DNA of 64,000 nt from positions 86,246-150,245 of the forward strand of contig CANRCR010000001.1 of NCBI GenBank assembly GCA_947629165.1. The letters are read 5' to 3'. Each line of letters opens with the position of its first letter. Position 1 is the stretch's first letter. The notes beneath the pieces are model-generated. The model ran no database searches and was not told the DNA's origin. It worked only from the letters and a program-made list of their open reading frames with translations. This document shows positions 1,702 to 63,417 of this stretch, one piece after another. This stretch comes from an uncultured Bacilli bacterium. GTDB lineage: Bacteria; Bacillota_I; Bacilli_A; RF39; UBA660. A program made the translations under genes and the position numbers.

Positions 1702-2235
1702 ATGAAAGATAAGAGAGGATTTACATTAGTTGAACTTTTGGCAGTACTCGTTGTTTTGGGAATCATTATGTTAATTGCTGTTCCTAATGTATTATCGACG
1801 ATGGATAATAATAAGAAAGAAATTTATATTACGGATGCAGGTAAGATGGTTACAATGGCGGAATACGCTATTCGATCGAATACGGATATTGCTTTACCAA
1901 CGGCCACTGAAATATTAATTCTTCCTTTATCAACCATTAACAATGGGGACTTGGAAGAAGATCCTGAAGGACGTACTTATTCACCTACCGACTCTTATGT
2001 TGCTATTATGAAGAATAATGGATTTGATGAGTATTGGGTGAATTTGGTTGGCGAAGAAGGAACGAGAAATCGTGGTATTCGTCTTACCAAATACGATGAT
2101 TTAAAAAAATCAGATCGTTTGAATCGCGTAGTTCTTGACATGAATGTTATAAAGACGACAAATACGGGTGGTATTGCACAAACCATGTGTGGTACTACTA
2201 GTTGTAAAACAGTTCGTGTTTATGCTTCAAAATAG
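1702..2235 (+). CDS. Prepilin-type N-terminal cleavage/methylation domain protein (type IV pilin / ComG-like pseudopilin) 1
   Basis: N-terminus MKDKRGFTLVELLAVLVVLGIIMLIAVP is a class III signal (G|FTLxE plus a hydrophobic helix). RBS taggaggt upstream. Confidence 0.8.
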   Translation: MKDKRGFTLVELLAVLVVLGIIMLIAVPNVLSTMDNNKKEIYITDAGKMVTMAEYAIRSNTDIALPTATEILILPLSTINNGDLEEDPEGRTYSPTDSYVAIMKNNGFDEYWVNLVGEEGTRNRGIRLTKYDDLKKSDRLNRVVLDMNVIKTTNTGGIAQTMCGTTSCKTVRVYASK

Positions 2236-2248
2236 GGGGGTATCTGTT

Positions 2249-2800
2249 ATGAAAAAGAAGAATGGTTTTACCTTAATTGAACTTTTGATTGTTGTAGTTA
2301 TTTTAGGTATTATGATTTTACTATCTACTTATATTCTTACGAATACCATCAATAATTCTCGAAAGGATTCTTTTATTCGAACCGTCGATAGTTATATAGC
2401 GCATGCGCGGACACAAATGTATTCGACAACTTATCCGATGCCTTTTAACCCGGATACGGCTGTTATTGTAAGTTTGCGTAGTCTCGATTTGGATGGACAA
2501 GATTCTGCTACTGCCAAATCGCCTTATGATGAACTTTGGGATATGGACGAAACATATACGGCAGCATATGTCGTTATTCACAACTACAATACGGCGGCTA
2601 ATCCACAGTGGACTTACTACTTTATTGCAAGAGATAAAGGCGGAAATTGTATTGAAATGACCGAAGAGGGACAAGCTACTAGAGAGAAGATTACGGTTGG
2701 TTGTGATATTCCTATTATTACTGCTGATTCTAAGACGTTATATATCCCTAATGAAGATAAAGAAGTACAGTTGACACCTAATTACATATTTTTGCGATAA
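2249..2800 (+). CDS. Prepilin-type N-terminal cleavage/methylation domain protein 2 (paralog of pilin 3)
   Basis: MKKKNGFTLIELLIVVVILGIMILL. I re-assigned the start to the ATG at 2249 behind RBS gggggg; the ORF-track start at 2168 overlaps the upstream gene. The C-terminal domain is paralogous to the 2867 protein (VVSLRSLDLDG...YVVI.N..TAA.P...YYF.A.D..GNCI). Confidence 0.8.
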   Translation: MKKKNGFTLIELLIVVVILGIMILLSTYILTNTINNSRKDSFIRTVDSYIAHARTQMYSTTYPMPFNPDTAVIVSLRSLDLDGQDSATAKSPYDELWDMDETYTAAYVVIHNYNTAANPQWTYYFIARDKGGNCIEMTEEGQATREKITVGCDIPIITADSKTLYIPNEDKEVQLTPNYIFLR

Positions 2801-2866
2801 GTTGTGTAAAATTGGTTGACCTTAAAAAGAATATATGATAATTTTAAATTAGAAGGAGAATGAAAT

Positions 2867-3457
2867 ATGAAAAAGAATTTAAACAAAAAAGGTTTTACTT
2901 TAGTTGAATTACTTGCTGTTATCGTTATTTTAGGTATTATTATGTTAATTGCTATTCCAAGTATTGCAGGAATTATTACCAATGCTCGGAAAGACTCATT
3001 TGTACAATCAATGGGACAATACATCAAAGCTGTTCACACAATGGATATTTCTCAAACTGTAGAAAGACAATACGATCCTACAAAGGCTACGGTTGTTAGT
3101 TTGAGAGCGGTTGACTTGGATAACAAAGAAGGAGATAAAGCTACATCGACATTTGGTGCTGCTTGGGATGCTTCCGATACTGAAACAAGAGCTTATGTAG
3201 TTATTTGGAACCGTCGTACTGCTGCTGACCCGGATTTCAAATATTACTTTGCTGCAGCCGATATGGCTGGTAACTGCATCGCTTTAACACTTGAAGGTGA
3301 TGCTGAACGTACAGATATTCAAACTGGTTGTACGATTACTCCAATTAATGAAAATACTTCGACATTAACAATTAATGTAGATGGCTCGGAATCAAAAACG
3401 GTAAACCTTGACAAAGATCATATCTATTTAACAAGAGCTTCTTATGGAAATGAATAA
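2867..3457 (+). CDS. Prepilin-type N-terminal cleavage/methylation domain protein 3
   Basis: MKKNLNKKGFTLVELLAVIVILGIIMLIAIP. Own promoter (ttgacc..17..tatgataat) and RBS aggagaa. A terminator hairpin follows. Confidence 0.8.
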   Translation: MKKNLNKKGFTLVELLAVIVILGIIMLIAIPSIAGIITNARKDSFVQSMGQYIKAVHTMDISQTVERQYDPTKATVVSLRAVDLDNKEGDKATSTFGAAWDASDTETRAYVVIWNRRTAADPDFKYYFAAADMAGNCIALTLEGDAERTDIQTGCTITPINENTSTLTINVDGSESKTVNLDKDHIYLTRASYGNE

Positions 3458-11012: not shown

Positions 11013-11089
<77 letters not shown>

Positions 11090-11152: not shown

Positions 11153-11244
11153 TTTCTTGACGATTATTTGTCAATTCATTTTTACTTTTTTTATTATTTC
11201 GAATATAATAAAATTAAAGTTATAAAAATAGAAAGGAGTATTTA

Positions 11245-11385
11245 TAACTAGCGCTAGGACCAGGATGGTTGACGAGGTTAACAGTGGTCGAAAGATTCAG
11301 CGGATGCTGTTACGGATACTACGTTCGTTAGACTATTCAAAAAAGACAAAATTAAAATTGTAACAAAGGAATAGTTTAGTAGTAG
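11245..11385 (+). ncRNA. glmS ribozyme (GlcN6P-responsive self-cleaving riboswitch) in the glmS leader
   Basis: Leader contains AGCGCUAGGACCAGG...GACGAGG...CGGAUGC, which matches the conserved glmS ribozyme core blocks (AGCGCC.G..., GACGAGG, GGAUGCC). It is positioned directly 5' of glmS, as in Gram-positives. Confidence 0.65.
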
Positions 11386-11396
11386 GAGGTTATAAT

Positions 11397-13163
11397 ATGT
11401 GTGGTATTGTAGGATACCTAGGAAATAGAAAAGCAATTCCTGTAATTATGCAGGGGTTAAAGAGTTTGGAATATCGTGGTTACGATTCTTCTGGAATTGC
11501 GTACGTTCAAGATCAGATGATTCACGTACTAAAAAAAGAAGGAAAAATAGAAAATTTAGATACCCTGTTGGATTATGATACGGATACCTATTTAGGAATC
11601 GCCCATACAAGGTGGGCTACGCATGGGAAGGCAAACGATATTAATGCTCATCCTCATACTTCAGGAAAAATCACTTTAGTTCATAATGGAATTATTGAAA
11701 ATTATGCCCAATTAAAGAAAAAACTCATTGAAAAAGGAAAAACTTTTGTCAGTGAAACCGATACGGAAGTCGTTGCTTGTTTACTCGATACTCTTTATGA
11801 AGAAACCAAAGATTTACTTAAAGCAATTGCACTTTTATCTGAAAAGGTAATCGGTTCTTATGCGTTAAATATTCTTTGTGAAGATGAACTCGATACTTTG
11901 TATGCCGTTCGAAAAGATAGTCCTTTGATTGTTGGAAGGGGGAATCAGGAATTTATTTTAGCGAGTGATATTCCAGCTTTACTTCCTGTTACGAATCATT
12001 ATTATCTTTTAGATAATTATGAAATTGTTAAAATAACCAAAGAAGGGATTTCTTTCTATGATCAAAAGTTAAATAAAATTACGAAAGTAGAACAGGAATA
12101 TACGGGTGACTTGGAAGTTTCTTCTAAAAAAGGATACGACCACTTTATGTTAAAGGAAATCAATGAACAACCGGAAGTAATTAAAAACTTACTTGCAAAA
12201 TATGTTGTAGAAGATCATCTTCAAAATGTTTTCGATATCAAAAAATATCAAACCATTGAAATTGTTGCCTGTGGAAGTGCCTATCATGCAGGTTTAATTG
12301 GCAAGTATTATTTGGAAAATTTAGCATCGATTCCAACGCGTGTCACTTATTCTTCCGAATATCGTTATCAGAAGAATTTCTTTGATAAGAATAATTTAGT
12401 TATTGTAATTTCACAATCTGGAGAAACGGCGGACACGTTAGCTGCTTTGAAATTAGCCAAAGAGCATGGAATCGACACGTTAGCGATTGTCAATGTGGTT
12501 TCTTCTTCGATTGCCCGTGAAGCAGATCATGTATTTTATACGGATGCCGGTATTGAAGTTGCGGTAGCGACTACCAAAGCTTATTTTGCTCAAGTAGTAT
12601 CGTTATTACTTCTTGCCGTGGCAACCTTAAAAGAACAAGCATCGATTCTTGCTTCATTGAAACAACTACCTTCGCTTATTTCGAAATATATTCATCATTT
12701 TGATTATGAAACACTTGCGAAACGTTTTATAGGTCGGGAACATATTTTCTATTTAGGAAGAGGCGTTGACTTTTCACTCGCAATGGAAGGAAGTTTAAAA
12801 TTAAAAGAAATTTCTTATATCCATAGTGAAGCTTATCCTGCTGGAGAATTAAAACATGGAACGATTTCACTAGTGGACGAAGAAACTGGAATTATTGCGG
12901 TTGTACTCGATCATACCATTAAAGAAAAGACGATTAGTAACTTGAAAGAAGTTGCTTCAAGGGGTGCTCAAGTGGTTGCTATTACGAACGATGCTACCGA
13001 TGAATTTTGTGATGAAAAAATACTTCTCGAAGATTATGATGCAGTGATTAATCCGTTAGTTGCGATTATTCCTATGCAATTATTAGCTTATCATGTTGCC
13101 AAGTTAAAAAAATGTGATATTGATAAACCACGCAATCTTGCGAAATCGGTTACCGTGGAATAA
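11397..13163 (+). CDS. glmS: Glutamine--fructose-6-phosphate aminotransferase
   Basis: N-terminal MCGIVGY (Ntn Cys). Two SIS domains. 588 aa. RBS taggaggtt. Confidence 0.9.
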   Translation: MCGIVGYLGNRKAIPVIMQGLKSLEYRGYDSSGIAYVQDQMIHVLKKEGKIENLDTLLDYDTDTYLGIAHTRWATHGKANDINAHPHTSGKITLVHNGIIENYAQLKKKLIEKGKTFVSETDTEVVACLLDTLYEETKDLLKAIALLSEKVIGSYALNILCEDELDTLYAVRKDSPLIVGRGNQEFILASDIPALLPVTNHYYLLDNYEIVKITKEGISFYDQKLNKITKVEQEYTGDLEVSSKKGYDHFMLKEINEQPEVIKNLLAKYVVEDHLQNVFDIKKYQTIEIVACGSAYHAGLIGKYYLENLASIPTRVTYSSEYRYQKNFFDKNNLVIVISQSGETADTLAALKLAKEHGIDTLAIVNVVSSSIAREADHVFYTDAGIEVAVATTKAYFAQVVSLLLLAVATLKEQASILASLKQLPSLISKYIHHFDYETLAKRFIGREHIFYLGRGVDFSLAMEGSLKLKEISYIHSEAYPAGELKHGTISLVDEETGIIAVVLDHTIKEKTISNLKEVASRGAQVVAITNDATDEFCDEKILLEDYDAVINPLVAIIPMQLLAYHVAKLKKCDIDKPRNLAKSVTVE

Positions 13164-22410: not shown

Positions 22411-22497
22411 ATGACTAAGTTATTATGGGAACTTTTTCAAAAAACAGGAAATATCCGTTATTATTTACTTGCCAAGAAAATACAGGAAAAGAAGTGA
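22411..22497 (+). CDS. yqzL: YqzL-like small protein (28 aa)
   Basis: MTKLLWELFQKTGNIRYYLLAKKIQEKK with RBS agaggtga. It has the same position (era-yqzL-recO) and the W..F..TGN...YLL motif as Bacillus YqzL. It falls below the ORF-track cutoff. Confidence 0.6.
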   Translation: MTKLLWELFQKTGNIRYYLLAKKIQEKK

Positions 22498-22501
22498 TTA
22501 T

Positions 22502-23239
22502 ATGGCTCTTATTGAAGTAGAAGGAATTGTTATCGGGGAAACGAATTACAGTGAATCTTCGAAAATTCTAACGGTCCTTACAGAATCTTATGGAAAAATC
22601 GGTGTTCTTTCGAAAGGATGCCGTTCCCTTAAAAGTAAACTTCGGAGTGTCAGTACCCGATTTACCTATGGTACTTTTCATCTTTATTATAAAAAAGAAG
22701 GACTTTCTACTTTACGTTGTGTTGATGTACTTCATCCTTTTTCACATCTGTTGAGTGATATAACGAAAATTAGTTATGCGACTTATTTAATTGATTTAGC
22801 GGATCAAGTTCTTTCTCAAACCGAAACTTCTACGGGGTATACGATTTTAATCGAAAGTTTAAAAAAGATAGATGAGGGGATGGATCCTCGTTTAATAACT
22901 TCGATTGTCGAACTAAAATTTTTAGATGAATTAGGGGTTCGTCCAAATATCGACGGTTGCAATGTTTGTGGCAATACGAAAAATATTGTGACTATCAATG
23001 TAGAGGCTGGAGGCTATCTCTGTGCGAACTGTTATCATCAAGAAAAAATATACAGTGATAAAATGGTTCAATTAATGCGTCTTTTTTACTATGTCGATAT
23101 TGCAAAAATTTCTTCTTTGTCCGTGCGCGATTCTGTAAAAAAAGAAATCGAAGAATTTATTGATGCTTATTACGATCAATATACGGGTCTTTATTTAAAA
23201 AGCAAACAATTTTTGAACAATTTGAAAAAACTAGGATAG
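22502..23239 (+). CDS. recO: DNA repair protein RecO
   Basis: MALIEVEGIVIGETNYSESSKIL (OB fold) plus a C-terminal Cys4 zinc motif CNVCG...CANC. Confidence 0.85.
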   Translation: MALIEVEGIVIGETNYSESSKILTVLTESYGKIGVLSKGCRSLKSKLRSVSTRFTYGTFHLYYKKEGLSTLRCVDVLHPFSHLLSDITKISYATYLIDLADQVLSQTETSTGYTILIESLKKIDEGMDPRLITSIVELKFLDELGVRPNIDGCNVCGNTKNIVTINVEAGGYLCANCYHQEKIYSDKMVQLMRLFYYVDIAKISSLSVRDSVKKEIEEFIDAYYDQYTGLYLKSKQFLNNLKKLG

Positions 23240-25948
23240 GTGAAGTATATGAAGAAACAACGAAATGTTCGGCCATATCTTATTACGAGTGGTATTATAT
23301 TAGGTATTTTTACACTTTTATTTTGTGTCAAAGGAATTTATCCTTTTGGTAATAATTCACTTATTTGGGGCGATATGCACGACCAAGTAACCGCTTTTTA
23401 TTATCATTTTTATGATGTCTTTCATGGCGATGCTTCTTTACTTGTCAATTTCAGTACGAGTGGAGGTATCAATTTTTTAGGAATTTTAGCTTATTATCTA
23501 TTAAGTCCCATCAGTTTTTTGATATTACTTTTTCCACGAAATGATATCTATCAAGCAATCTCTATTTTAATTGCAATTAAAGTATTACTATCGGGTTTAA
23601 CTTGTCTTTACTTTATTCGAACTTATTTTAAAAATACCCCTCATTATATCAGTGTTTTACTAGCTATCTTATATGCTTTTTCAGGCTATCAACTATTACT
23701 TTATCAAATTACGGCTTGGATCGATATCGTATACTTATTCCCACTTTTATTAATTGGACTTAAAAAGGTACTTGATCTTGAAAGTCCGGTAGGTTATACG
23801 CTTCTTCTTGCACTTTGTTTTATCTTTTCATTTTATTTAGCCGTACTTTTAGTTTTCTTCTTATTCTTTGTATCTTTCATTTATCTTTATTATTTTCGTC
23901 CGAAAGAAACACATAAGAAGGCAATTGTCGGTTTAGGAATATCGACGGTTCTCGCTTTGCTTTTATCTTGTTTCGTTTTACTTCCAGCGGTTGGACAAAT
24001 TTCGGTTTCATCTCGTGTTGGATTTAATATTAATACTTTATTAAATTCAAAGTTTGGGGCATTAAACGATAAACTTTGTTTCTTTATTACTGCTTCTTTT
24101 TCGATTGTCGGCGCACTTCTTTTGATGGTTACTGGATGGAAGAAAAAGAAACATAAAAATGTGGTTTTGTTCTTTTTAACTTGTTTTGTTCTTTTACTTA
24201 TTCCGGTCTTTATCGAACCCGTAAATAAGATGTGGCATCTCGGATCTTATGCTTTTTTCCCTCTTCGAACGGGATTTGTTCTTTTGTTTTTATTATTAAT
24301 TGCCACGCTTTACTATTTTACCCATTTATCGAAAGAAAAACCGTTTCCGAAAAAGAATATTATTTATGCTATTTTGATTACGATTGCTGTCGTAGTTACC
24401 AACGTTACGATTACGGTATGTAACTATCGCTTTTTACAAAATAAAATCTATGGTATCTCTTTAGGAAAAGATGTTCAGGTAGCGGCAACGTTATTAATCA
24501 TGATGGCTATTTTTGCCCTTGGTATTTTCTTAATTCTTTGGCTACATCATTTCTGTTATAGTAAACTTACTTTCACTTTTATTTGGATTTTAGCTTTGAC
24601 TAATATTTTGTGTTGTTCTTTCTTGTACTTTGGTATCGATTCTCATCAAAAAGAATTAACCGGAGTCTATGTCGACATGCAAGAGATGAGTACTTCTTAT
24701 CAAGAAGACGATTATATGCGCGTGAAGGATTTATATCCAAAGTTAGTTATGAATAATGGAATGGTTACTCGGTATCATACGTTAGATCATTTTACTTCGT
24801 TAACCGATAAAAGTAATATGGAAACGTTAAAGAAGATGGGTTATTCTTCCTATTGGGTTAAAACTTATTCGATTGGCGGAACTCTTTTCAGTGATGCGGT
24901 TCTTGCTAACCAATATTTGATTAGTAAAGATCCGTATATTAATCCTTACTATTCTTATGTAACTAACTATGGTGATTTCTTATTCTATCGTCATAATTTG
25001 GAGATTCCGTACGGTCTTATGATCGATCATGATGTTTCAATTATGGACTTTGACAATGCTTTTGAAATTCAAAATGCCATTTATCAAGGTATCACTGGGG
25101 AAGCGGATTCTATATTTACAATCAGTGATACTCCTTGGACTAGAAAGAATTTATTCTGTTTTAAAGAAAAAGAGACGGATACTTTCAATCGGTATCTTAT
25201 TCGTAAAAATGAACGAATTGCTTATTTAGAAAAAGAAATTGATGTTAAAGGAAGACAAAATTTATATTTGGAATTGTTACTTTCGATCGACAACACGAAA
25301 AATAGTGAGATTTTAGAAAGTACCAATATTTATATCAATGGCAAACTTTATCGGGAAAAGTTCCCAGAAGAGATCGATAACGGTTTACTTGACTTAGGTA
25401 TCTTCGAGGATGAAAAAGTAAAAATTCGAATCGAATTCAATAAATCGACTTATTTTAGCGTTATCGAAGTAGGAATGTTGGATTTAGACCGATATGAATC
25501 TTTTGTTGCTAACGAAAAACTTCCACTTACTATCGACTTTACTAGAAATGAAATTCATGTTCAAGTTCCGAGTGATAAAGCGGGTGTACTGTTCTTACCG
25601 ATTGCTTATAACGACGGTTATGACGTTACCGTTAATGGAACGCATCAAGAAGTCCTCGATTTGTTCGATAACTTTTTAGGAGTCAAGGTCGAAGAAGGGG
25701 ATAATGAGATTGTCTTCACTTATACTCCTCCTTACTTTAAAATCGGATGTCTTATTAGTATCGTTGCCCTTATCGGTATGCTTCTTCTTTATGGTACACG
25801 GCTTTACGAACGAATTTTATCATTTCACCTTCTTCAGAATATTGCTTATTATCTTTATTTAGGAATCTATTTGATACTACTCGTAGCCTTTTATATCGTA
25901 CCAATTTTAGGATTCTTGTTATCTTTCTTCTTTTATATTAAATTATAG
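23240..25948 (+). CDS. YfhO-family polytopic membrane protein (putative glycosyltransferase for cell-envelope glycopolymers)
   Basis: 902 aa with more than 12 TM helices. The N-terminal region (GIYPFGNNSLIWGDMHDQ...) is typical of the YfhO family. Confidence 0.65.
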   Translation: MKYMKKQRNVRPYLITSGIILGIFTLLFCVKGIYPFGNNSLIWGDMHDQVTAFYYHFYDVFHGDASLLVNFSTSGGINFLGILAYYLLSPISFLILLFPRNDIYQAISILIAIKVLLSGLTCLYFIRTYFKNTPHYISVLLAILYAFSGYQLLLYQITAWIDIVYLFPLLLIGLKKVLDLESPVGYTLLLALCFIFSFYLAVLLVFFLFFVSFIYLYYFRPKETHKKAIVGLGISTVLALLLSCFVLLPAVGQISVSSRVGFNINTLLNSKFGALNDKLCFFITASFSIVGALLLMVTGWKKKKHKNVVLFFLTCFVLLLIPVFIEPVNKMWHLGSYAFFPLRTGFVLLFLLLIATLYYFTHLSKEKPFPKKNIIYAILITIAVVVTNVTITVCNYRFLQNKIYGISLGKDVQVAATLLIMMAIFALGIFLILWLHHFCYSKLTFTFIWILALTNILCCSFLYFGIDSHQKELTGVYVDMQEMSTSYQEDDYMRVKDLYPKLVMNNGMVTRYHTLDHFTSLTDKSNMETLKKMGYSSYWVKTYSIGGTLFSDAVLANQYLISKDPYINPYYSYVTNYGDFLFYRHNLEIPYGLMIDHDVSIMDFDNAFEIQNAIYQGITGEADSIFTISDTPWTRKNLFCFKEKETDTFNRYLIRKNERIAYLEKEIDVKGRQNLYLELLLSIDNTKNSEILESTNIYINGKLYREKFPEEIDNGLLDLGIFEDEKVKIRIEFNKSTYFSVIEVGMLDLDRYESFVANEKLPLTIDFTRNEIHVQVPSDKAGVLFLPIAYNDGYDVTVNGTHQEVLDLFDNFLGVKVEEGDNEIVFTYTPPYFKIGCLISIVALIGMLLLYGTRLYERILSFHLLQNIAYYLYLGIYLILLVAFYIVPILGFLLSFFFYIKL

Positions 25949-26070
25949 TTTGAAAAGGAATAAAGTAATTGACTTTGTTCTTTTTTTTAATTAGAATAAT
26001 TGACTACAATTAGTTTCATATAAACATGGATTAATTATTTGGTAAATCCATTTTGAAGAGAGTGATTCTT

Positions 26071-26904
26071 ATGGAAAAATTTACTTTAACTCTTTTAACG
26101 GCGCAAGAAATTGGACGGGTAGGAGCAACTGATTCCGTTGAACCAATTTATTATTTGGAATGTAGGCCAACTTCCTTTGCACTTGCGACGGGTGCTTATA
26201 ATGAGGGCTTTTATTGGACTCGTTCTTGGCGTGACTCAGGAGGCCTTTTCTGTTCTCGTAATGGCGATCCTGCCACTTGCCGTTACGAGGGGATTCGTCC
26301 GGTTTTATGTCCGAAAGATGAAAGTTTCTATCAACAACTTTTAGATGAAAGTACGATTTTTCAAAGTTCGCTTTACCATGATCATGCACCGCTTGTATTT
26401 TATGGCGAATATCCGTGTGAAAAGGTTTCGGATGAGGAACAACTTAATTTAGAAACGGATTATAAAAATGAACGTTTGAGCACTACTTCAAAAATATATA
26501 CGTTTGATTCCAATGTCCCACATGCGTCGGGATTTGCTTTTGCTCCTGAAACTTATCTGGAATTTGAATGTTTAGGAGAAAAATATATTCGTTATAAGAG
26601 TTATTACTCAAAATATGAAGGAAATTGGTTTCGAGTACAACCCATTCCGTGGTATATCGATTTAAAAAATCATCGTTTAATTTCGCAAAATATTCTTGTT
26701 GCCGGTATTCAGTTTAACGATCTTTTACAACCGGATGGTATCGATTTTGAAAAGACCCGTATGAAATGGTATCTCGATACTCATTTAGCTCCTAATATTT
26801 TGCCTTCGCACGAAAGCATCTTACAGCAAAATGAACCTTTACGACAATTTGTTTATCGTAAATCTTATTCTAATCGACAAAAAAAGGAAAACGAAGATAG
26901 GTGA
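26071..26904 (+). CDS. DUF6273-like family paralog 1 (function unknown)
   Basis: Start taken at the ATG at 26071 (MEKFTLTLLT...). Shares WT/WYW and RYEGIRPV N-terminal signatures, and C-terminal FYGEYP...WFRVQPIPWYIDL...LISQNILVAGIQF, with four other proteins in this window. Confidence 0.6.
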   Translation: MEKFTLTLLTAQEIGRVGATDSVEPIYYLECRPTSFALATGAYNEGFYWTRSWRDSGGLFCSRNGDPATCRYEGIRPVLCPKDESFYQQLLDESTIFQSSLYHDHAPLVFYGEYPCEKVSDEEQLNLETDYKNERLSTTSKIYTFDSNVPHASGFAFAPETYLEFECLGEKYIRYKSYYSKYEGNWFRVQPIPWYIDLKNHRLISQNILVAGIQFNDLLQPDGIDFEKTRMKWYLDTHLAPNILPSHESILQQNEPLRQFVYRKSYSNRQKKENEDR

Positions 26905-26908
26905 TTTT

Positions 26909-27775
26909 ATGGATTTTAAGATATCAATTCCTAGTGCTTACGATATTGGAAGAGCATCCTCTATTTCGAAAGCAGATAATAATCCGCCTTCCTATTTAAG
27001 TGCTTATGCCATGTTTAAAATACATCCTAAGTTAGCTATTCCACTTACTGATTTTGCAATGGTGGTTACACCGAGTCGCTATTCGACTCCGTTTTGGACT
27101 AAAACACCTTTTGATGATCAAATGTATAATTCTTCGTATTTTTCTTATCCGTATGCTACTAATATTTCCGTTTTACCAACATTAAAACCTTCGGAGTCGC
27201 TCTATAAAGATTTGTTTTTAGAGGGAAATTTTTCAGAATCGATTCCAACGGTTCAATTTGGTACCTATCCACAAAATTATGTAACAGATGTAGCTCTTTG
27301 GACAGAATTGAACGAAGCATATCAAGCTAGGACATTACCCAAGACAGGAAACCAATATACTTTTTATCGGAACGAAGCACTCGGAAATTATAAGACGGGA
27401 AGGCTTTGCACTTATGAATCTTTTACTTGGGAAGATCGACAATTTCTTTTTCTTCCAAGTCTTAGAGAAACATTTGCTATTACCTATGATATTTTAGTTC
27501 TTCCCAATCAGCCTATTTGGATTGAAATTCTTCCGGTCGAGTGGAAGATCGATACAAAGCATCAGGTGCTTGTTGCTAGTAAAGTTTTACTTTCAGGTAT
27601 ACCACTTCACAATGACGACTGGTATTCGGGCGATTTTGAAGATAGTTTTTTATATGGCTATCTCAATCATCATTTTAAAAAGCAATTACTTTTTTCTTCA
27701 ACTCCCGTTTCATCCTTGGTCGATACGCATGAAGATTTAAATAAGTTGATGTATAAAAAATTTGGAAAAAGATAA
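26909..27775 (+). CDS. DUF6273-like family paralog 2 (divergent)
   Basis: Start at the ATG at 26909. C-terminal block FGTYPQ...PIWIEILPVEWKIDTKHQVLVASKVLLSGIPL parallels the other paralogs. The N-terminal part is more divergent. Confidence 0.55.
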   Translation: MDFKISIPSAYDIGRASSISKADNNPPSYLSAYAMFKIHPKLAIPLTDFAMVVTPSRYSTPFWTKTPFDDQMYNSSYFSYPYATNISVLPTLKPSESLYKDLFLEGNFSESIPTVQFGTYPQNYVTDVALWTELNEAYQARTLPKTGNQYTFYRNEALGNYKTGRLCTYESFTWEDRQFLFLPSLRETFAITYDILVLPNQPIWIEILPVEWKIDTKHQVLVASKVLLSGIPLHNDDWYSGDFEDSFLYGYLNHHFKKQLLFSSTPVSSLVDTHEDLNKLMYKKFGKR

Positions 27776-27855
27776 TTTTGTTAAAATTTAATTTCGTTTT
27801 ATTTTATCGAACAGTTATGCTTGACGAATTCATTTTAATGTAATAAAATGTAAGT

Positions 27856-27980
27856 AATTGATGCGATGACGGGCTTGGAAACCTAACAGCAATATAGTTT
27901 GAGGGATTCTTATGGAATAAGTAGAGTGGAACCGCGGAGAAACCGTCTCTACAAAATAAGGGTCTTTTTTATTTTCAAGG
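27856..27980 (+). promoter_or_regulatory. T-box riboswitch leader (likely tRNA-Pro-responsive) controlling proS
   Basis: Promoter TTGACG-17-TAAAAT at 27821-27849. Conserved T-box sequence AGAGUGGAACCGCGG at 27923-27937. A candidate specifier CCU (Pro) sits in an A-rich loop around 27882. A U-rich terminator region lies before the RBS. Confidence 0.6.
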
Positions 27981-27990
27981 AGGAATGTTT

Positions 27991-29415
27991 ATGAAAAACA
28001 AAAGTATTACCCCAAGAGATGAAGATTTTGGAAAGTGGTATACCGATGTCGTACAAGCGGCTCATTTAGCGGCTTATTCGAATGTTAAAGGTTGTATTGT
28101 AATGGAACCGAACGGATATGCAATTTGGGAAAATATTCAAAAAGGTTTGGATCGTATGTTTAAGGAAACAGGACATCAAAATATTTGTATGCCTTTATTA
28201 ATTCCTGAAAACTTACTTCGTAAAGAGAGTGATTTAATTAATGGTTTTGCTCCCGAAGTGGCTTGGGTAACGAAAGGGGGAGAAAAAGAACTCGAAGAAC
28301 GGATGTGTATTCGTCCCACTTCGGAAACCCTTTTTAGCGATTACTATAGTACTCTTGTTAAAAGTTATCGTGATTTACCTGTAAAGTACAATCAGTGGTG
28401 TAATGTACTTCGTTGGGAAAAAGAAACACGTCCTTTTTTGCGAGGAAGAGAATTCTTGTGGCAGGAAGGTCATACGATTCATGAAACGAGTGAAGAAGCA
28501 GAACAAGAAACGAGACAGATGTTAGCTATCTATCGTCGGTTCTTTGAAGAGTATTTAGCGATTCCTGTCATTACCGGTAGAAAGACAGAAAAAGAAAAAT
28601 TTGCTGGCGCTGAATACACTTTAACGGTCGAAGCGATGATGCATAGTGGTGTCTCTCTCCAATCGGCTACGAGTCATTATTTTGGACAAAAGTTTTCGCG
28701 CGCATACGACATCAAATTTTTAGATCGAAATAACGAATGGCAATATGCTTATCAAACTTCGTGGGGTGCATCTACACGAATGATTGGTGGACTTATTATG
28801 GTTCATAGCGATGATAATGGATTAGTACTTCCGCCAAAGATTGCGCCTCAACAAGTAGTTATTATTCCAATTAAAGAAAGCGATGCTGTTAACCAATATA
28901 TCGAACCTCTTTTTGAAGCACTTAAAGCAAGTGGTTTAACCGTTCGCGTGGATCGAAGTGATAAATCGGCAGGATTTAAATTCGCCGAGGCGGAAGTCAA
29001 TGGTATTCCAGTTCGAATCGAAGTAGGGGACCGGGATTTACAAGAAGGAAAAGTGACCCTTGTCCGTCGTGATACGAGAGAAAAAATAAACGTAGATAAA
29101 GATAGTGATGTGGTCTCTACCGTTCTCGATTTGTTAGATACAATTCAAAAAGATATGTATTTACGTGCTAAAGAAAATAGAGATCGTTATACCTATGAAG
29201 CCCATACTTTCGAAGAAGTTCAAAAGATTATGGAAACGCATCCCGGTTTTGTTAAAGCAATGTGGTGTGGCGATGAAGCTTGTGAACTTAAGATGAAAGA
29301 GATTAAGGGAACCAAATCTCGTTGTATTTTAGAAGATGCCGAACCGATTGATGATAAGTGTGTTGTTTGTGGCAAGGAAGCAAAACATTTAGTTGTTTGG
29401 GATATTCAATATTAG
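27991..29415 (+). CDS. proS: Proline--tRNA ligase (archaeal/eukaryotic-type ProRS)
   Basis: About 475 aa, class II motifs, C-terminal zinc-binding domain (CGDEAC...CVVCG). Start taken at the ATG at 27991 behind aaggagga. Confidence 0.85.
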   Translation: MKNKSITPRDEDFGKWYTDVVQAAHLAAYSNVKGCIVMEPNGYAIWENIQKGLDRMFKETGHQNICMPLLIPENLLRKESDLINGFAPEVAWVTKGGEKELEERMCIRPTSETLFSDYYSTLVKSYRDLPVKYNQWCNVLRWEKETRPFLRGREFLWQEGHTIHETSEEAEQETRQMLAIYRRFFEEYLAIPVITGRKTEKEKFAGAEYTLTVEAMMHSGVSLQSATSHYFGQKFSRAYDIKFLDRNNEWQYAYQTSWGASTRMIGGLIMVHSDDNGLVLPPKIAPQQVVIIPIKESDAVNQYIEPLFEALKASGLTVRVDRSDKSAGFKFAEAEVNGIPVRIEVGDRDLQEGKVTLVRRDTREKINVDKDSDVVSTVLDLLDTIQKDMYLRAKENRDRYTYEAHTFEEVQKIMETHPGFVKAMWCGDEACELKMKEIKGTKSRCILEDAEPIDDKCVVCGKEAKHLVVWDIQY

Positions 29416-60113: not shown

Positions 60114-60752
60114 ATGAAAGAAAAAGAATATAATACTTCGGTTATCATAACGCATTTTGATGTCGATTGGATGCGCATTAAATCTGCCTGTATGACAACG
60201 ATTAGTAAACAGGCTGGAACTAAAGAACCATCGGGATTATGGAAAAAGAAACTTTTAATCTGTCGCCATTCTCCTATCCGAAGAGGGGAAGTGAGTTGGA
60301 AATGGCCACAAATACCTTACGCTATTTCGACACATTTTGCACGGCATCACGAAGGATGCGAAAAGTTTATTGGAACGGAACGTACGGATCGTACGAATGT
60401 CGATCGTGAAACAAGAAGTCAAATGAATTATGTTCCAATGGAAATGGATGCCAATTTACAAGCGTTAATGAGTATTTCAGAACGGCGACTCTGTACGAAT
60501 GCCGACCCGCTTACTCGCAAATATTGGAGTTCACTTGTGGATGCACTTCAAGCCTATGATCCTTATGTCGCTTGGAGTAACGTTCCTCAATGTGTTGTTC
60601 GAGGGGGATGTTGTGAACCTTTCAGTCCTTGTCTTTTCTATGACAACTTAATGAAAGATGCCACCGAAGAAGAAAAAACATCACTTATTAAACGTTACGA
60701 TTTTTATAATCGAAAAACACGGGGATTAGTTCTTCCAACCGATACGAAATAA
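60114..60752 (+). CDS. Cys/His/Arg-rich hypothetical protein with elevated GC
   Basis: 212 aa with RBS tagggagtg. Composition is visibly GC-richer (about 40+%) than the flanks. No family recognised with confidence. Confidence 0.5.
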   Translation: MKEKEYNTSVIITHFDVDWMRIKSACMTTISKQAGTKEPSGLWKKKLLICRHSPIRRGEVSWKWPQIPYAISTHFARHHEGCEKFIGTERTDRTNVDRETRSQMNYVPMEMDANLQALMSISERRLCTNADPLTRKYWSSLVDALQAYDPYVAWSNVPQCVVRGGCCEPFSPCLFYDNLMKDATEEEKTSLIKRYDFYNRKTRGLVLPTDTK

Positions 60753-60843
60753 ATCCTTTGAAAAGGCTTTTTTCTTTACTTTTAAAACTAAAGAAATTAT
60801 AATAAAAAGTACTTTATTTTATCGATTAAGGAGCAATTTTTCT

Positions 60844-61692
60844 ATGAATAATTATGAACTTTCTATACTTTCCTATAAAGATGTGCATGGCGATGAAAAT
60901 ACGGATTCCATTATTAAAAATCATAGAAAAGCGGAAATTACGGATTTTGCGCTTCTTTTAGGTGGGGAAAGTACCGAGACAGGAACTTGGTGGTATTGGA
61001 TTAATGGAGTCAATACTCCTTACAGTGCTGTCGATTCTACTGGGCGTTTCTGTAATACCCGTCTTTCTCGGCGTAGTGGCGGAATACGTCCTTGTTTAAA
61101 AGTTTCTAACTTGAGTCGGATTCCTTACGAAATAATCGAAAATAGATTTGTAGAAGAAGTGATTTTCGGCGAATATCCGCAGTTTTCTGCTCGTACTTTG
61201 TCTCCTATATTAGAAAATGAGTATCAAAATGGTTTGCTTTCGGAAAGTGGTAAATATTACTCGAGTGATTCTCAAGAATGGACAGAGGAAGAGGGACCTT
61301 TTAAAGAACGCCGATTCACCGAATATATTTATCATAATCGGAAATTTATTCGTGTCATCGGGGATGAGAATGGCATAAATAATCATTTAAGTGATGGGGA
61401 AACTGTATATGTTGGGACCCCTTATTGGTTGGAAGTAACCCCTGTTCATTGGTATTTAGATGAAGCAAACCAGCAACTTATTTCACGTTATATTTTAGTT
61501 TCTGGTGTTCGTTATAGTAATCGTTCGAGTAAAATTATTACTGAGAGTGAAATTTATCATTTTTTACAAGATTATATGTTAGGTAATATTTATAATTCTT
61601 CTGATACTTCAATTTTGGGCCATAACAAGGATTTACGTAGCTTTGTCTATCGAAAAAAGATGTCCAAAAAAGCCACGTCAGGGGATGAGTAA
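60844..61692 (+). CDS. DUF6273-like family paralog 3
   Basis: N-terminus YELSILSYKDV...ITDFALLLGG...TWWYWING...RRSGGIRPCLKV. C-terminus FGEYPQF...YWLEVTPVHWYLD...LISRYILVSGVRY. Confidence 0.6.
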   Translation: MNNYELSILSYKDVHGDENTDSIIKNHRKAEITDFALLLGGESTETGTWWYWINGVNTPYSAVDSTGRFCNTRLSRRSGGIRPCLKVSNLSRIPYEIIENRFVEEVIFGEYPQFSARTLSPILENEYQNGLLSESGKYYSSDSQEWTEEEGPFKERRFTEYIYHNRKFIRVIGDENGINNHLSDGETVYVGTPYWLEVTPVHWYLDEANQQLISRYILVSGVRYSNRSSKIITESEIYHFLQDYMLGNIYNSSDTSILGHNKDLRSFVYRKKMSKKATSGDE

Positions 61693-62490
61693 ATGAATAC
61701 TTTCAAATTGTCTTTACCTACGTATCAAGATTTACATGAAGGAGTTTATTATCCGCTCGATGTTTGTGCAAGAGCTACAGATTATGCTTTTCTAACTGGA
61801 TGTGGCGGTTCCTTTGATCATTACGGTTGGTACTGGCTCAAAGCAGATAATAGTTCCGTTAATTCGGTTTCTACGACAGGTGGGATTTCTTCAGAAAATA
61901 AAGGACGTCGTTGTGGGGGAATACGACCTTCTATTTATGTTGCATCGTTACTTCCTTCTTCTAAGAAAATTATATCTTTCGGTGAATATCCTCAATTTTA
62001 CGATTATAGCGATAATGAGGAAATCGAATCTGCCTTTCAACGCAATCAACTTAGTCCTACTGGAAAGTTCTATTCGCTCGATAGTTGTCATTGGAATGAT
62101 GTCGATTCTCCTTTTCAACTTCGAAGATTTCCTGAATATAAATATAATAACAAAAAATATATCCGCTTGGTCGGGGATTTTAATAGCGATGGCGCTATTC
62201 TTAATAATGGAGAACGAGTCGTCGAAAATAATCCGTATTGGATCAAGGTAGAACCGATTCTTTGGATTCCTGATTATGACCACCATCTACTTCTATCAAA
62301 ATATGTTCTTTTATCGGGAATTCGTTATCATAGCGACATCTTTTATGATTCTTTTGATAATACTGAAATGAATAACTATCTTAGTAAATATATGACGCAA
62401 GAAATTAGCCCAGATGCATATCAGTCGACAGTTATTGATCATCATCCTAATTTACAACAATTTATTTACCGTAAACTTCCTAGAAAATAA
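61693..62490 (+). CDS. DUF6273-like family paralog 4
   Basis: FKLSLPTYQDL...ATDYAFLTGCGG...YGWYWLKAD...RRCGGIRPSIYV; FGEYPQF...YWIKVEPILWIPD...LLSKYVLLSGIRY. Start is 1 nt after the paralog 3 stop. Confidence 0.6.
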   Translation: MNTFKLSLPTYQDLHEGVYYPLDVCARATDYAFLTGCGGSFDHYGWYWLKADNSSVNSVSTTGGISSENKGRRCGGIRPSIYVASLLPSSKKIISFGEYPQFYDYSDNEEIESAFQRNQLSPTGKFYSLDSCHWNDVDSPFQLRRFPEYKYNNKKYIRLVGDFNSDGAILNNGERVVENNPYWIKVEPILWIPDYDHHLLLSKYVLLSGIRYHSDIFYDSFDNTEMNNYLSKYMTQEISPDAYQSTVIDHHPNLQQFIYRKLPRK

Positions 62491-62536
62491 TTTACTTTAA
62501 TCGATACCAGCGTTATAATAGGTATACTTTCTCGTT

Positions 62537-63340
62537 TTGTGGGGTGAATCTATGGAAAAATATAAACTCACTTTAATGAATAAAGATGATTTTCAATTTC
62601 TTTCGGGAAACTATGCTATTATGATCGATAGTGAAGCACGTGCGACCGATTTACATATTCTTTCAGGGGGTGGAGCCACCTCTCGCTTTGTTGCTTGGTA
62701 TTGGATTACGAGGTGCAATAACAATTCGAATAATTGTGTCAATTCGGATGAACATATTTCTGTTGAACGTGAAACCCGTCGTTGTGGAGGCATTCGTCCG
62801 GTTATTGAAGTGGAAGATTTAAATGATATTTCTTATATCCCTCAAGATAATGGGAAAGTTCTTTTTGGGGAGTACCCACAATTTTATGTTCCAGATCTTA
62901 GTCCCGAGTTAGAAAGAGTTTATCAAAACGGAATGCTTTCTACTACGGAAAGACATTATTCGCTCGATGGTACCTTTTGGCAATATGAGTCTCCTGATTT
63001 TAAACTTCGCACTTTTCGTGAATACACTTATAAGGATCGTCATTTTATTCGCTTTGTGGGGGACGAGAACGGTTGCCATGAAAATTTATGGAACTTGGAT
63101 AAAATAGAAATGAATAAAGCTTATTGGATTGAGGTAAAACCGGTTACTTGGTATTTAGATGAAAATAGACAACGACTTATTTCCAAATATGTTCTTCTTT
63201 CGGGCATTCGTTATGTCGATTTAGAATCCTATTTAAAATTATATATGACTCCGGAAATTGCTTCACGCCGTTCCAATTCATTTATTTTAGATTCGAATCA
63301 AGATTTACGTAGTTTGGTATATCGTAAAATTAAAAAATAG
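62537..63340 (+). CDS. DUF6273-like family paralog 5
   Basis: YKLTLMNKDDF...ATDLHILSGGG...VAWYWITRCN...RRCGGIRPVIEV; FGEYPQF...YWIEVKPVTWYLD...LISKYVLLSGIRY. Confidence 0.6.
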   Translation: MWGESMEKYKLTLMNKDDFQFLSGNYAIMIDSEARATDLHILSGGGATSRFVAWYWITRCNNNSNNCVNSDEHISVERETRRCGGIRPVIEVEDLNDISYIPQDNGKVLFGEYPQFYVPDLSPELERVYQNGMLSTTERHYSLDGTFWQYESPDFKLRTFREYTYKDRHFIRFVGDENGCHENLWNLDKIEMNKAYWIEVKPVTWYLDENRQRLISKYVLLSGIRYVDLESYLKLYMTPEIASRRSNSFILDSNQDLRSLVYRKIKK

Positions 63341-63417
63341 AAAAAAAGGGAAGGAAACTTTACCTTTTCTTTTGGTTTAATTTTTAGTATAATAAGTTTA
63401 GTTTAGAGGTGGATTCC

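Follow-up and report, generated by a model that had tools for sequence, protein, structure and literature searches.

Stand-alone, circularly permuted DUF6273-type proteins of an uncultured Bacilli bacterium are orphaned relatives of a retroelement-diversified AAA+/vWA system

Five paralogous genes were analysed in a stretch of 64,000 nucleotides (nt) from an uncultured Bacilli bacterium of the RF39 lineage (assembly GCA_947629165.1, contig CANRCR010000001.1, positions 86,246 to 150,245, forward strand; G+C 34%), hereafter the window. They are orphaned relatives of an AAA+/vWA system that is diversified by a diversity-generating retroelement (DGR), and their products represent the C-type-lectin-like DUF6273 superfamily in a permuted, cytoplasmic, stand-alone form. 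The genes lie in two clusters, all on the + strand:

26071-26904, + strand: A1, 277 amino acids (aa); score of 203 bits with the family hidden Markov model
26909-27775, + strand: A2, 288 aa; most divergent paralog, WYW and GGIRP motifs lost
60844-61692, + strand: B1, 282 aa; query of the structure prediction
61693-62490, + strand: B2, 265 aa; start codon immediately after the B1 stop
62552-63340, + strand: B3, 262 aa

Results

Paralogy and conserved motifs

An earlier note on this DNA had proposed one paralogous family in two clusters, and pairwise BLASTP agreed with it for all five proteins (E 1e-11 to 1e-60). Identity was 35-40% between pairs of B copies (E 1e-54 to 1e-60), about 27% between A1 and the B copies (E ~1e-19 to 1e-21) and 25-30% between A2 and the others (E 1e-11 to 1e-16). 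Cluster A thus resembles cluster B far more than chance would allow. B1, B2 and B3 were each other's closest relatives, which points to a lineage-specific triplication. The start of A2 had been placed at 26906, one codon before the start of the called open reading frame (ORF; 26909), and an alternative TTG start of A1 at 26053 would give a protein of 283 aa.

The motifs TD(F/Y)A, WYW, RRxGGIRP, FGEYPQ, YWxEVxPxxW and SGxRY, read from the sequence beforehand, were true conserved columns, and the loss of WYW and GGIRP from A2 was likewise seen in the five-copy alignment. Conserved columns consisted mostly of G, P, W and Y plus a few polar residues, and no catalytic-type motif was apparent among them, which argues against an enzyme.

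All five proteins carry a conserved C-terminal tail with the consensus [ILV][ILM]xxNxxLxx[FL][VI]Y[RW]K, of which L264, Y269 and K271 (B1 numbering) were invariant across the paralogs:

26818-26862, + strand: tail motif in A1
27716-27760, + strand: tail motif in A2
61612-61656, + strand: tail motif in B1, ILGHNKDLRSFVYRK
62431-62475, + strand: tail motif in B2
63284-63328, + strand: tail motif in B3

The tail was common to at least 11 other stand-alone cluster representatives (P0021, P0049, P0056, P0073, P0077, P0084, P0085, P0095, P0105, P0118 and P0127) and to the arrays at two further loci, L092 and L094. The window copies form part of a stand-alone subfamily that can be recognised by this conserved C-terminal tail.

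Relationship to DUF6273

The five proteins were assigned to no family by hmmscan with Pfam, even at E ≤ 1, and had no match in the NCBIfam, PHROGs and PADLOC scans; their artificial permutation still gave no match to Pfam DUF6273 (PF19789). A Pfam scan of 68 long homologs detected DUF6273 in 6 of them (best E 2e-7), besides AAA/AAA_5, ankyrin repeats and DUF4116. In two-module proteins (P0008, P0010) the match to the DUF6273 model lay across the boundary between two successive modules, with aa 214-375 of P0008 matching model positions 5-170, which suggested a circular permutation. When its C-terminal part was placed ahead of the N-terminal part, the family consensus scored 25 bits, above the PF19789 gathering score of 23.5 bits; the unpermuted consensus had no match.

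A canonical set of 120 PF19789 proteins was retrieved with a bait sequence (41-67% identity to the real proteins), and 16 of them were aligned. The N-terminal module of the family (B1 1-88) was aligned by hhalign to canonical positions 202-305 (probability 95.7%, E 1e-8), and the C-terminal module (B1 106-245) to canonical positions 7-169 (probability 97.3%, E 1.6e-11). The two matches did not overlap, and their order was swapped relative to the canonical proteins, which indicates that the family module (~260 aa) corresponds over its whole length to the canonical DUF6273 unit of about 300 aa in circularly permuted form. The canonical unit includes the FGxYPQ strand and a beta-rich insert, both upstream of the Pfam model boundary, and its order (FGxYPQ, PIxW, helices, then a lectin-like core ending in GVRPAL) was not kept in the window proteins. 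The resemblance to DUF6273 that had been suspected is a real remote homology, but it gave no direct Pfam match and is not confined to the N-terminal half, since both halves are related in swapped order.

DUF6273 has been described as C-type-lectin-like and as a DGR target in gut phages (PMC10743442; bioRxiv 10.1101/2024.10.15.618418), and canonical DUF6273 is known from proteins that Firmicutes secrete and from receptor-binding proteins of phages (PMC12402451, PMC10743442). Its occurrences include the N-terminal domain of the secreted immunoglobulin A protease of Thomasclavelia ramosa (PDB 9qa6) and the tentaclins, DGR targets of gut phages. With these proteins the window copies share homology over both halves and the motifs FGxYPQ, PIxW, (F)LLS/TLL, TDYA, WW and GxRPAL; they differ in being permuted, cytoplasmic rather than secreted or virion-borne, and stand-alone at about 270 aa with a C-terminal tail of their own.

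Predicted structure

The AlphaFold2 model of B1, computed from an alignment of 83 sequences, had a mean predicted local distance difference test score (pLDDT) of 90.8 and a predicted template modelling score of 0.87. The best structural match of the model was a DUF6273 domain, and the fold is probably lectin-like. Foldseek against PDB and BFVD returned nothing significant, and sequence searches of PDB gave chance matches only. The elements of the canonical DUF6273 unit are a C-type-lectin-like core, an FGxYPQ strand that carries a beta-rich insert, a PIxW hairpin, and helices. A model computed from the five paralogs alone was poor (pLDDT 49) and was discarded.

Size and distribution of the family

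An exhaustive profile search of 1.84 billion cluster representatives (clusters at 50% identity) returned 2511 relatives, 526 of them at E ≤ 1e-30. Some relatives were 260-330 aa long and many were 500-1000 aa long. A word-indexed protein search returned only the query itself and one close relative. When a single genome of each species was scanned, 203 relatives came to light, nearly all of them in uncultured gut Bacilli, 'Tenericutes'/Mollicutes, Erysipelotrichaceae and metagenome-assembled genomes of Clostridia. No relatives were found among IMG/VR viral contigs, and a phage origin was rejected on the result of that scan.

Retroelement cassette of the relatives

Neighbourhoods were analysed in 78 fetched loci of relatives (numbered with the prefix L), with clustering of the neighbouring ORF. 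Most members in these loci were 620-750 aa long and consisted of the module followed by a C-terminal AAA+ domain (AAA/AAA_5). The order of the cassette was an Avd-like ORF, a template repeat (TR), a reverse transcriptase (RT), the permuted-DUF6273/AAA+ target, a protein of about 136 aa (p136), and a protein combining DUF2201_N (metallopeptidase-like, HExxH) with DUF2201 (vWA-like). The RT was present in 27 of the 78 loci (RVT_1 E 8e-19), p136 in 49 and the DUF2201 protein in 52. The Avd-like ORF upstream matched NCBIfam DivGenRetAVD (E 4.5e-5) and Pfam bAvd (E 0.011). Examples of the cassette were found among L010-L087, such as L024:3158-9219 and L066:4684-9690. The p136 of L024 (7146-7562) had no family match and carried Walker-B-like (LIIDKID) and sensor-1-like (IIVTAN) stretches; on account of these it may be a truncated AAA+ fragment.

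The TR (80-114 nt, upstream of the RT) matched a segment located 210-310 nt into the target gene. The 234 mismatches in 19 pairs of TR and variable region (VR), drawn from 17 loci, included 218 at TR adenines, and the cassettes of the relatives are genuine DGRs. The VRs of L024 and L026 differed from each other at TR-adenine codons, and in both L032 and L040 a single TR served two paralogous targets. PADLOC recognised only the RT among the cassette proteins, and no description of the cassette was found in the searchable literature. At L017:3031-9656, seven consecutive ORF or fragments of the family were present, several of them split, which suggests an array in frameshift decay or assembly errors.

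The VR spans and TR-adenine codons of the 19 pairs mapped to B1 residues 58-86, the stretch that contains RRxGGIRP and in which A2 has lost this motif. The homologous segment is the DGR variable region also in phage DUF6273 targets. Owing to the permutation, the VR of the relatives lies near the N-terminus (codons ~70-105), a location that was rare in a 2018 survey of DGRs (PMC5758913). Like the DGR C-type-lectin variable proteins Mtd of a Bordetella phage and TvpA of Treponema, the full-length relatives have an Avd-like gene, a TR, an RT and an adenine-specific VR, which lies at the C-terminal end of the lectin-like core. They differ from those proteins in that the VR is near the protein N-terminus, and the window copies differ further in that neither RT nor TR was found in the window and no hypervariation was seen.

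Fixed variable-region equivalents in the window

The segments equivalent to the VR of the relatives were located in all five genes:

26236-26310, + strand: VR equivalent of A1, aa 56-80
27122-27190, + strand: VR equivalent of A2, aa 72-94, degenerate
61015-61101, + strand: VR equivalent of B1, aa 58-86, TPYSAVDSTGRFCNTRLSRRSGGIRPCLK; predicted ligand-binding loops
61852-61938, + strand: VR equivalent of B2, aa 54-82
62723-62809, + strand: VR equivalent of B3, aa 58-86

Searches of the 64-kb window by tblastn with the RT, p136 and the DUF2201 protein returned nothing, and no TR-like repeat or adenine-mismatch template was present in it. No ATPase domain was found in the five proteins or in a gene adjoining them. 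The VR equivalent of B3 was identical in five strain variants, and one residue of the A1 equivalent differed among A1 variants. The A1 and A2 proteins were 100% identical across 8 metagenome contigs. Differences between B1 and its 86%-identical ortholog were spread along the gene and were mostly transitions, with no adenine bias. The window copies are not hypermutated.

These results bear on the alternative that DGR targeting of the five genes continues, with an RT/TR cassette elsewhere in the genome diversifying them in trans. The genes are homologous to proven DGR targets, with the VR as the homologous segment, one TR can serve two targets (L032, L040), and the scope of the RT/TR search was the 64-kb window. 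The segment was also rich in NNY codons in B1 (24 of 27, against a background of 0.61; binomial p = 0.0015) and in A1 (20 of 24, against 0.57; p = 0.006), and in both genes it was enriched in AAY-reachable residues; however, this NNY/AAY signature is confounded by the amino acid composition of the loops and was not used as evidence. Diversification in trans is made very improbable by the absence of an RT, an Avd and a TR-like repeat from the window, by the near invariance of the segment among B3 and A1 variants, by the identity of the A1 and A2 proteins among contigs, and by the scattered, adenine-unbiased differences of the B1 ortholog.

Selection

The ratio of non-synonymous to synonymous substitution rates (dN/dS) was estimated from orthologs and strains rather than from the window paralogs, because synonymous sites are saturated among the latter (25-40% protein identity). 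Strain variants differed from A1 at 5 synonymous sites and from A2 at 1-2, and in neither gene was there a non-synonymous difference. B1, compared with its 86%-identical ortholog at L009, had a dN/dS of 0.26, and the upstream neighbour gene one of 0.03. All five ORF were intact, each with a plausible ribosome-binding site. The substitution patterns indicate that the window copies are functional genes under purifying selection.

A reading of the genes as decaying, pseudogene-like remnants of former DGR-ATPase genes, with no present function, would fit their lack of the ATPase half and of the operon partners typical of most relatives, the loss of key motifs in A2, and the complete cassette that occupies the syntenic recO-glyQS interval at L066. 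It is difficult to reconcile with the five intact ORF and their plausible ribosome-binding sites, with strain differences in A1 and A2 that were synonymous only, or with a B1 dN/dS well below 1. The subfamily tail, moreover, is kept across species despite module identity of about 30%, and the same slots are occupied in other species. Loss of function of this kind is a very unlikely explanation.

Turnover at fixed slots

The A cluster lies in the order era-recO-yfhO-[A1 A2]-proS-glyQS and the B cluster in the order gpr-spoIIP-orf108-NT5C-orf212-[B1 B2 B3]-lepA, and both interrupt housekeeping synteny. Intergenic gaps were 4 nt between A1 and A2, 0 nt between B1 and B2 and 61 nt between B2 and B3. 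Positional counterparts in related species were 28-35% identical to the window copies, compared with 58-91% for the flanking genes, and one-to-one orthology between window copies and positional counterparts was not found. The counterpart of A1 at L088 was about 30% identical, and the closest outside relative of A2 (P0021) was located in the yfhO-proS slot of the same locus, where the order is yfhO-[282 aa][288 aa]-SocA_Panacea-orf151-proS. In the lepA slot, L094 has NT5C-orf209-[four copies]-lepA, whereas the window has 3 copies. The low identity of the counterparts and the differing copy number indicate fast divergence and birth-and-death turnover at fixed slots.

At the more distant L066 (GlyQS 83% identical), a complete DGR cassette is present in the recO-glyQS interval, and this slot is therefore a long-standing site of the family. 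The interval from recO to proS/glyQS (window 22469-29415) is a variable accessory slot, occupied in the window by yfhO, A1 and A2; yfhO and proS are absent from the recO-glyQS interval at L066, and a SocA_Panacea gene and an ORF of 151 aa are added at L088. At L092:2645-8825 (ENA ERZ27249483 NODE_3798), six to seven tandem copies bearing the tail directly follow rpoA-rplQ. The sample of L092 also holds the species of the window, at similar coverage (2.6x vs 3.0x), and the array could represent a third cluster in the genome of the window or come from a relative.

Rapid diversification, as the earlier note had it, was seen between species (counterparts at about 30% identity, against 58-91% for the flanks) and in the B1 dN/dS of 0.26, but not as a recent amplification: DNA identity between the window copies was at most 73%, so that the copies are old, and they are stable within the species.

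Location of the proteins and gene context

No signal peptide, transmembrane segment, lipobox or sortase motif was found in the five proteins, of which the maximum Kyte-Doolittle mean over 19 residues was at most 1.21. All five were acidic (pI 5.3-5.9; 31-33 kDa), and they are predicted to be cytoplasmic. The earlier description of small proteins with no signal peptide was accurate (262-288 aa, no hydrophobic segment). Secreted or surface carbohydrate-binding adhesins would be an alternative given the probable lectin-like fold and the many canonical DUF6273 proteins that are secreted by Firmicutes or bind phage receptors (PMC12402451, PMC10743442). The lack of any export or anchoring signal, the fusion of relatives to cytoplasmic AAA+ ATPases and to ankyrin repeats, and the lack of phage-borne relatives in IMG/VR leave adhesins scarcely credible.

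Immunity or antitoxin-like proteins, encoded in orphan immunity arrays and neutralising toxins of competitors or toxins encoded elsewhere, would also be cytoplasmic. Such arrays typically consist of small cytoplasmic paralogs that lie in tandem, have diverged and turn over rapidly at fixed slots, and at L088 the A-type pair is followed by a gene with the antitoxin domain SocA_Panacea. However, no toxin, secretion-system gene or known immunity family is located nearby, and the relatives of the module are recognition domains fused to ATPases, ankyrin repeats or DUF4116 and do not act as toxin partners. An immunity function distinct from sensing is unlikely on this evidence, and it overlaps with the explanation preferred below in that both suppose the binding of a foreign protein.

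Other features of the window

Candidate regulatory elements near the five genes were consensus matches only:

25969-25997, + strand: promoter-like TTGACT-17-TAGAAT, 5' of A1
60775-60803, + strand: promoter-like TTTACT-17-TATAAT, 5' of B1
62491-62519, + strand: hexamer pair identical to that of the B1 promoter-like site, 5' of B3
63344-63373, + strand: terminator-like hairpin directly 3' of B3, before lepA

Promoter-like sites in the region upstream of A1 were no more numerous than in shuffled sequence. A1A2, B1B2 and B3 are the transcription units predicted for the two clusters. Rfam at gathering score matched only a tRNA gene (11013-11086) and a glmS ribozyme (11239-11385, + strand) in the window, both upstream of the ORF at 11397-13163; no T-box was detected with Rfam in the 209-nt gap before proS (27776-27984).

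The gene orf212 (60114-60752, + strand; 212 aa) had no Pfam or NCBIfam match. It was always located 3' of the NT5C 5'-nucleotidase gene, its counterpart at L094 was 71% identical, and it was under strong purifying selection (dN/dS 0.03 vs L009). At 1702-3457 (+ strand), three adjacent genes start with a repeated 74-nt segment that specifies the prepilin-type motif KxGFTLVELL at the N-terminus, which suggests genes for competence or for type IV pseudopilins.

Discussion

The five genes probably encode soluble, non-enzymatic cytoplasmic binding modules with fixed loops, whose repertoire is generated by gene duplication and whose role is likely to be the recognition of foreign molecules. The stand-alone subfamily would have lost both the ATPase and the retroelement, and the sequences of its loops would have become fixed. 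Its repertoire would have arisen as genes were duplicated in tandem, diverged fast and turned over at two slots, between yfhO and proS and between NT5C-orf212 and lepA. The VR-equivalent segment would probably give each paralog a ligand of its own, binding through these loops being predicted from the homology of that segment with the VR of the relatives. The conserved C-terminal tail may couple the paralogs to a common partner. The most likely role would be the intracellular recognition of foreign or competitor molecules, with the proteins acting as a sensor of conflict or defence type, a decoy or a neutraliser. The idea of an effector, immunity or phage-interaction family, raised when the genes were first noticed, was a reading of the same kind; it is here sharpened to a DGR-linked sensor module, and the present results are not a direct demonstration of it.

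Among described systems, the closest in theme to the relatives are the NTP-dependent MoxR-vWA conflict systems that are coupled to a DGR and occur in cyanobacteria and other multicellular bacteria (Kaur et al. 2020, PMC7159879; Dore et al. 2024, PMC10907252). As in the 'VMAP ternary' systems among them, a hypervariable sensor of lectin fold, an AAA+ protein (AAA_5/MoxR-like) and a vWA-type partner occur together, in the cytoplasm. The relatives differ in that the sensor is fused to the ATPase and not to the vWA protein, in that the vWA partner combines a metallopeptidase-like DUF2201_N with DUF2201 and is accompanied by the extra protein of about 136 aa, and in that their hosts are small-genome gut Bacilli and not cyanobacteria or other multicellular bacteria. 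The window carries the sensor module only.

Four points weigh against recognition in a defence context as proposed for the window genes. The defence role is suggested by analogy with the MoxR/vWA systems (PMC7159879, PMC10907252). PADLOC 2.0 recognised none of the five proteins, and no ATPase or effector gene able to act with the paralogs was present in the window. The putative binding site of A2, with WYW and GGIRP lost, may be non-functional or different.

A bolder form of the proposed binding role, which is rather doubtful, is that the genes constitute a set of intracellular 'antigen' receptors, encoded in the germline, that takes the place of DGR hypermutation in this lineage; the fixed loops of each copy would recognise a different invader molecule, and the tails would dock onto one shared effector or ATPase. 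If it were true, one protein family would meet a single recognition problem in two ways, by an innate-type set of genes and by hypermutation of somatic type.

None of the Pfam, NCBIfam, PHROG and PADLOC models matched the window proteins, and the large family to which they belong proves to be DUF6273 in circularly permuted form. Among the relatives, this module serves a cytoplasmic AAA+/vWA system of small-genome gut Bacilli as its hypermutated sensor. The window presents the sensor module with no retroelement nearby and so allows a direct comparison of retroelement-driven and duplication-driven diversification of one scaffold; the conserved tail motif provides a handle in the search for a partner.

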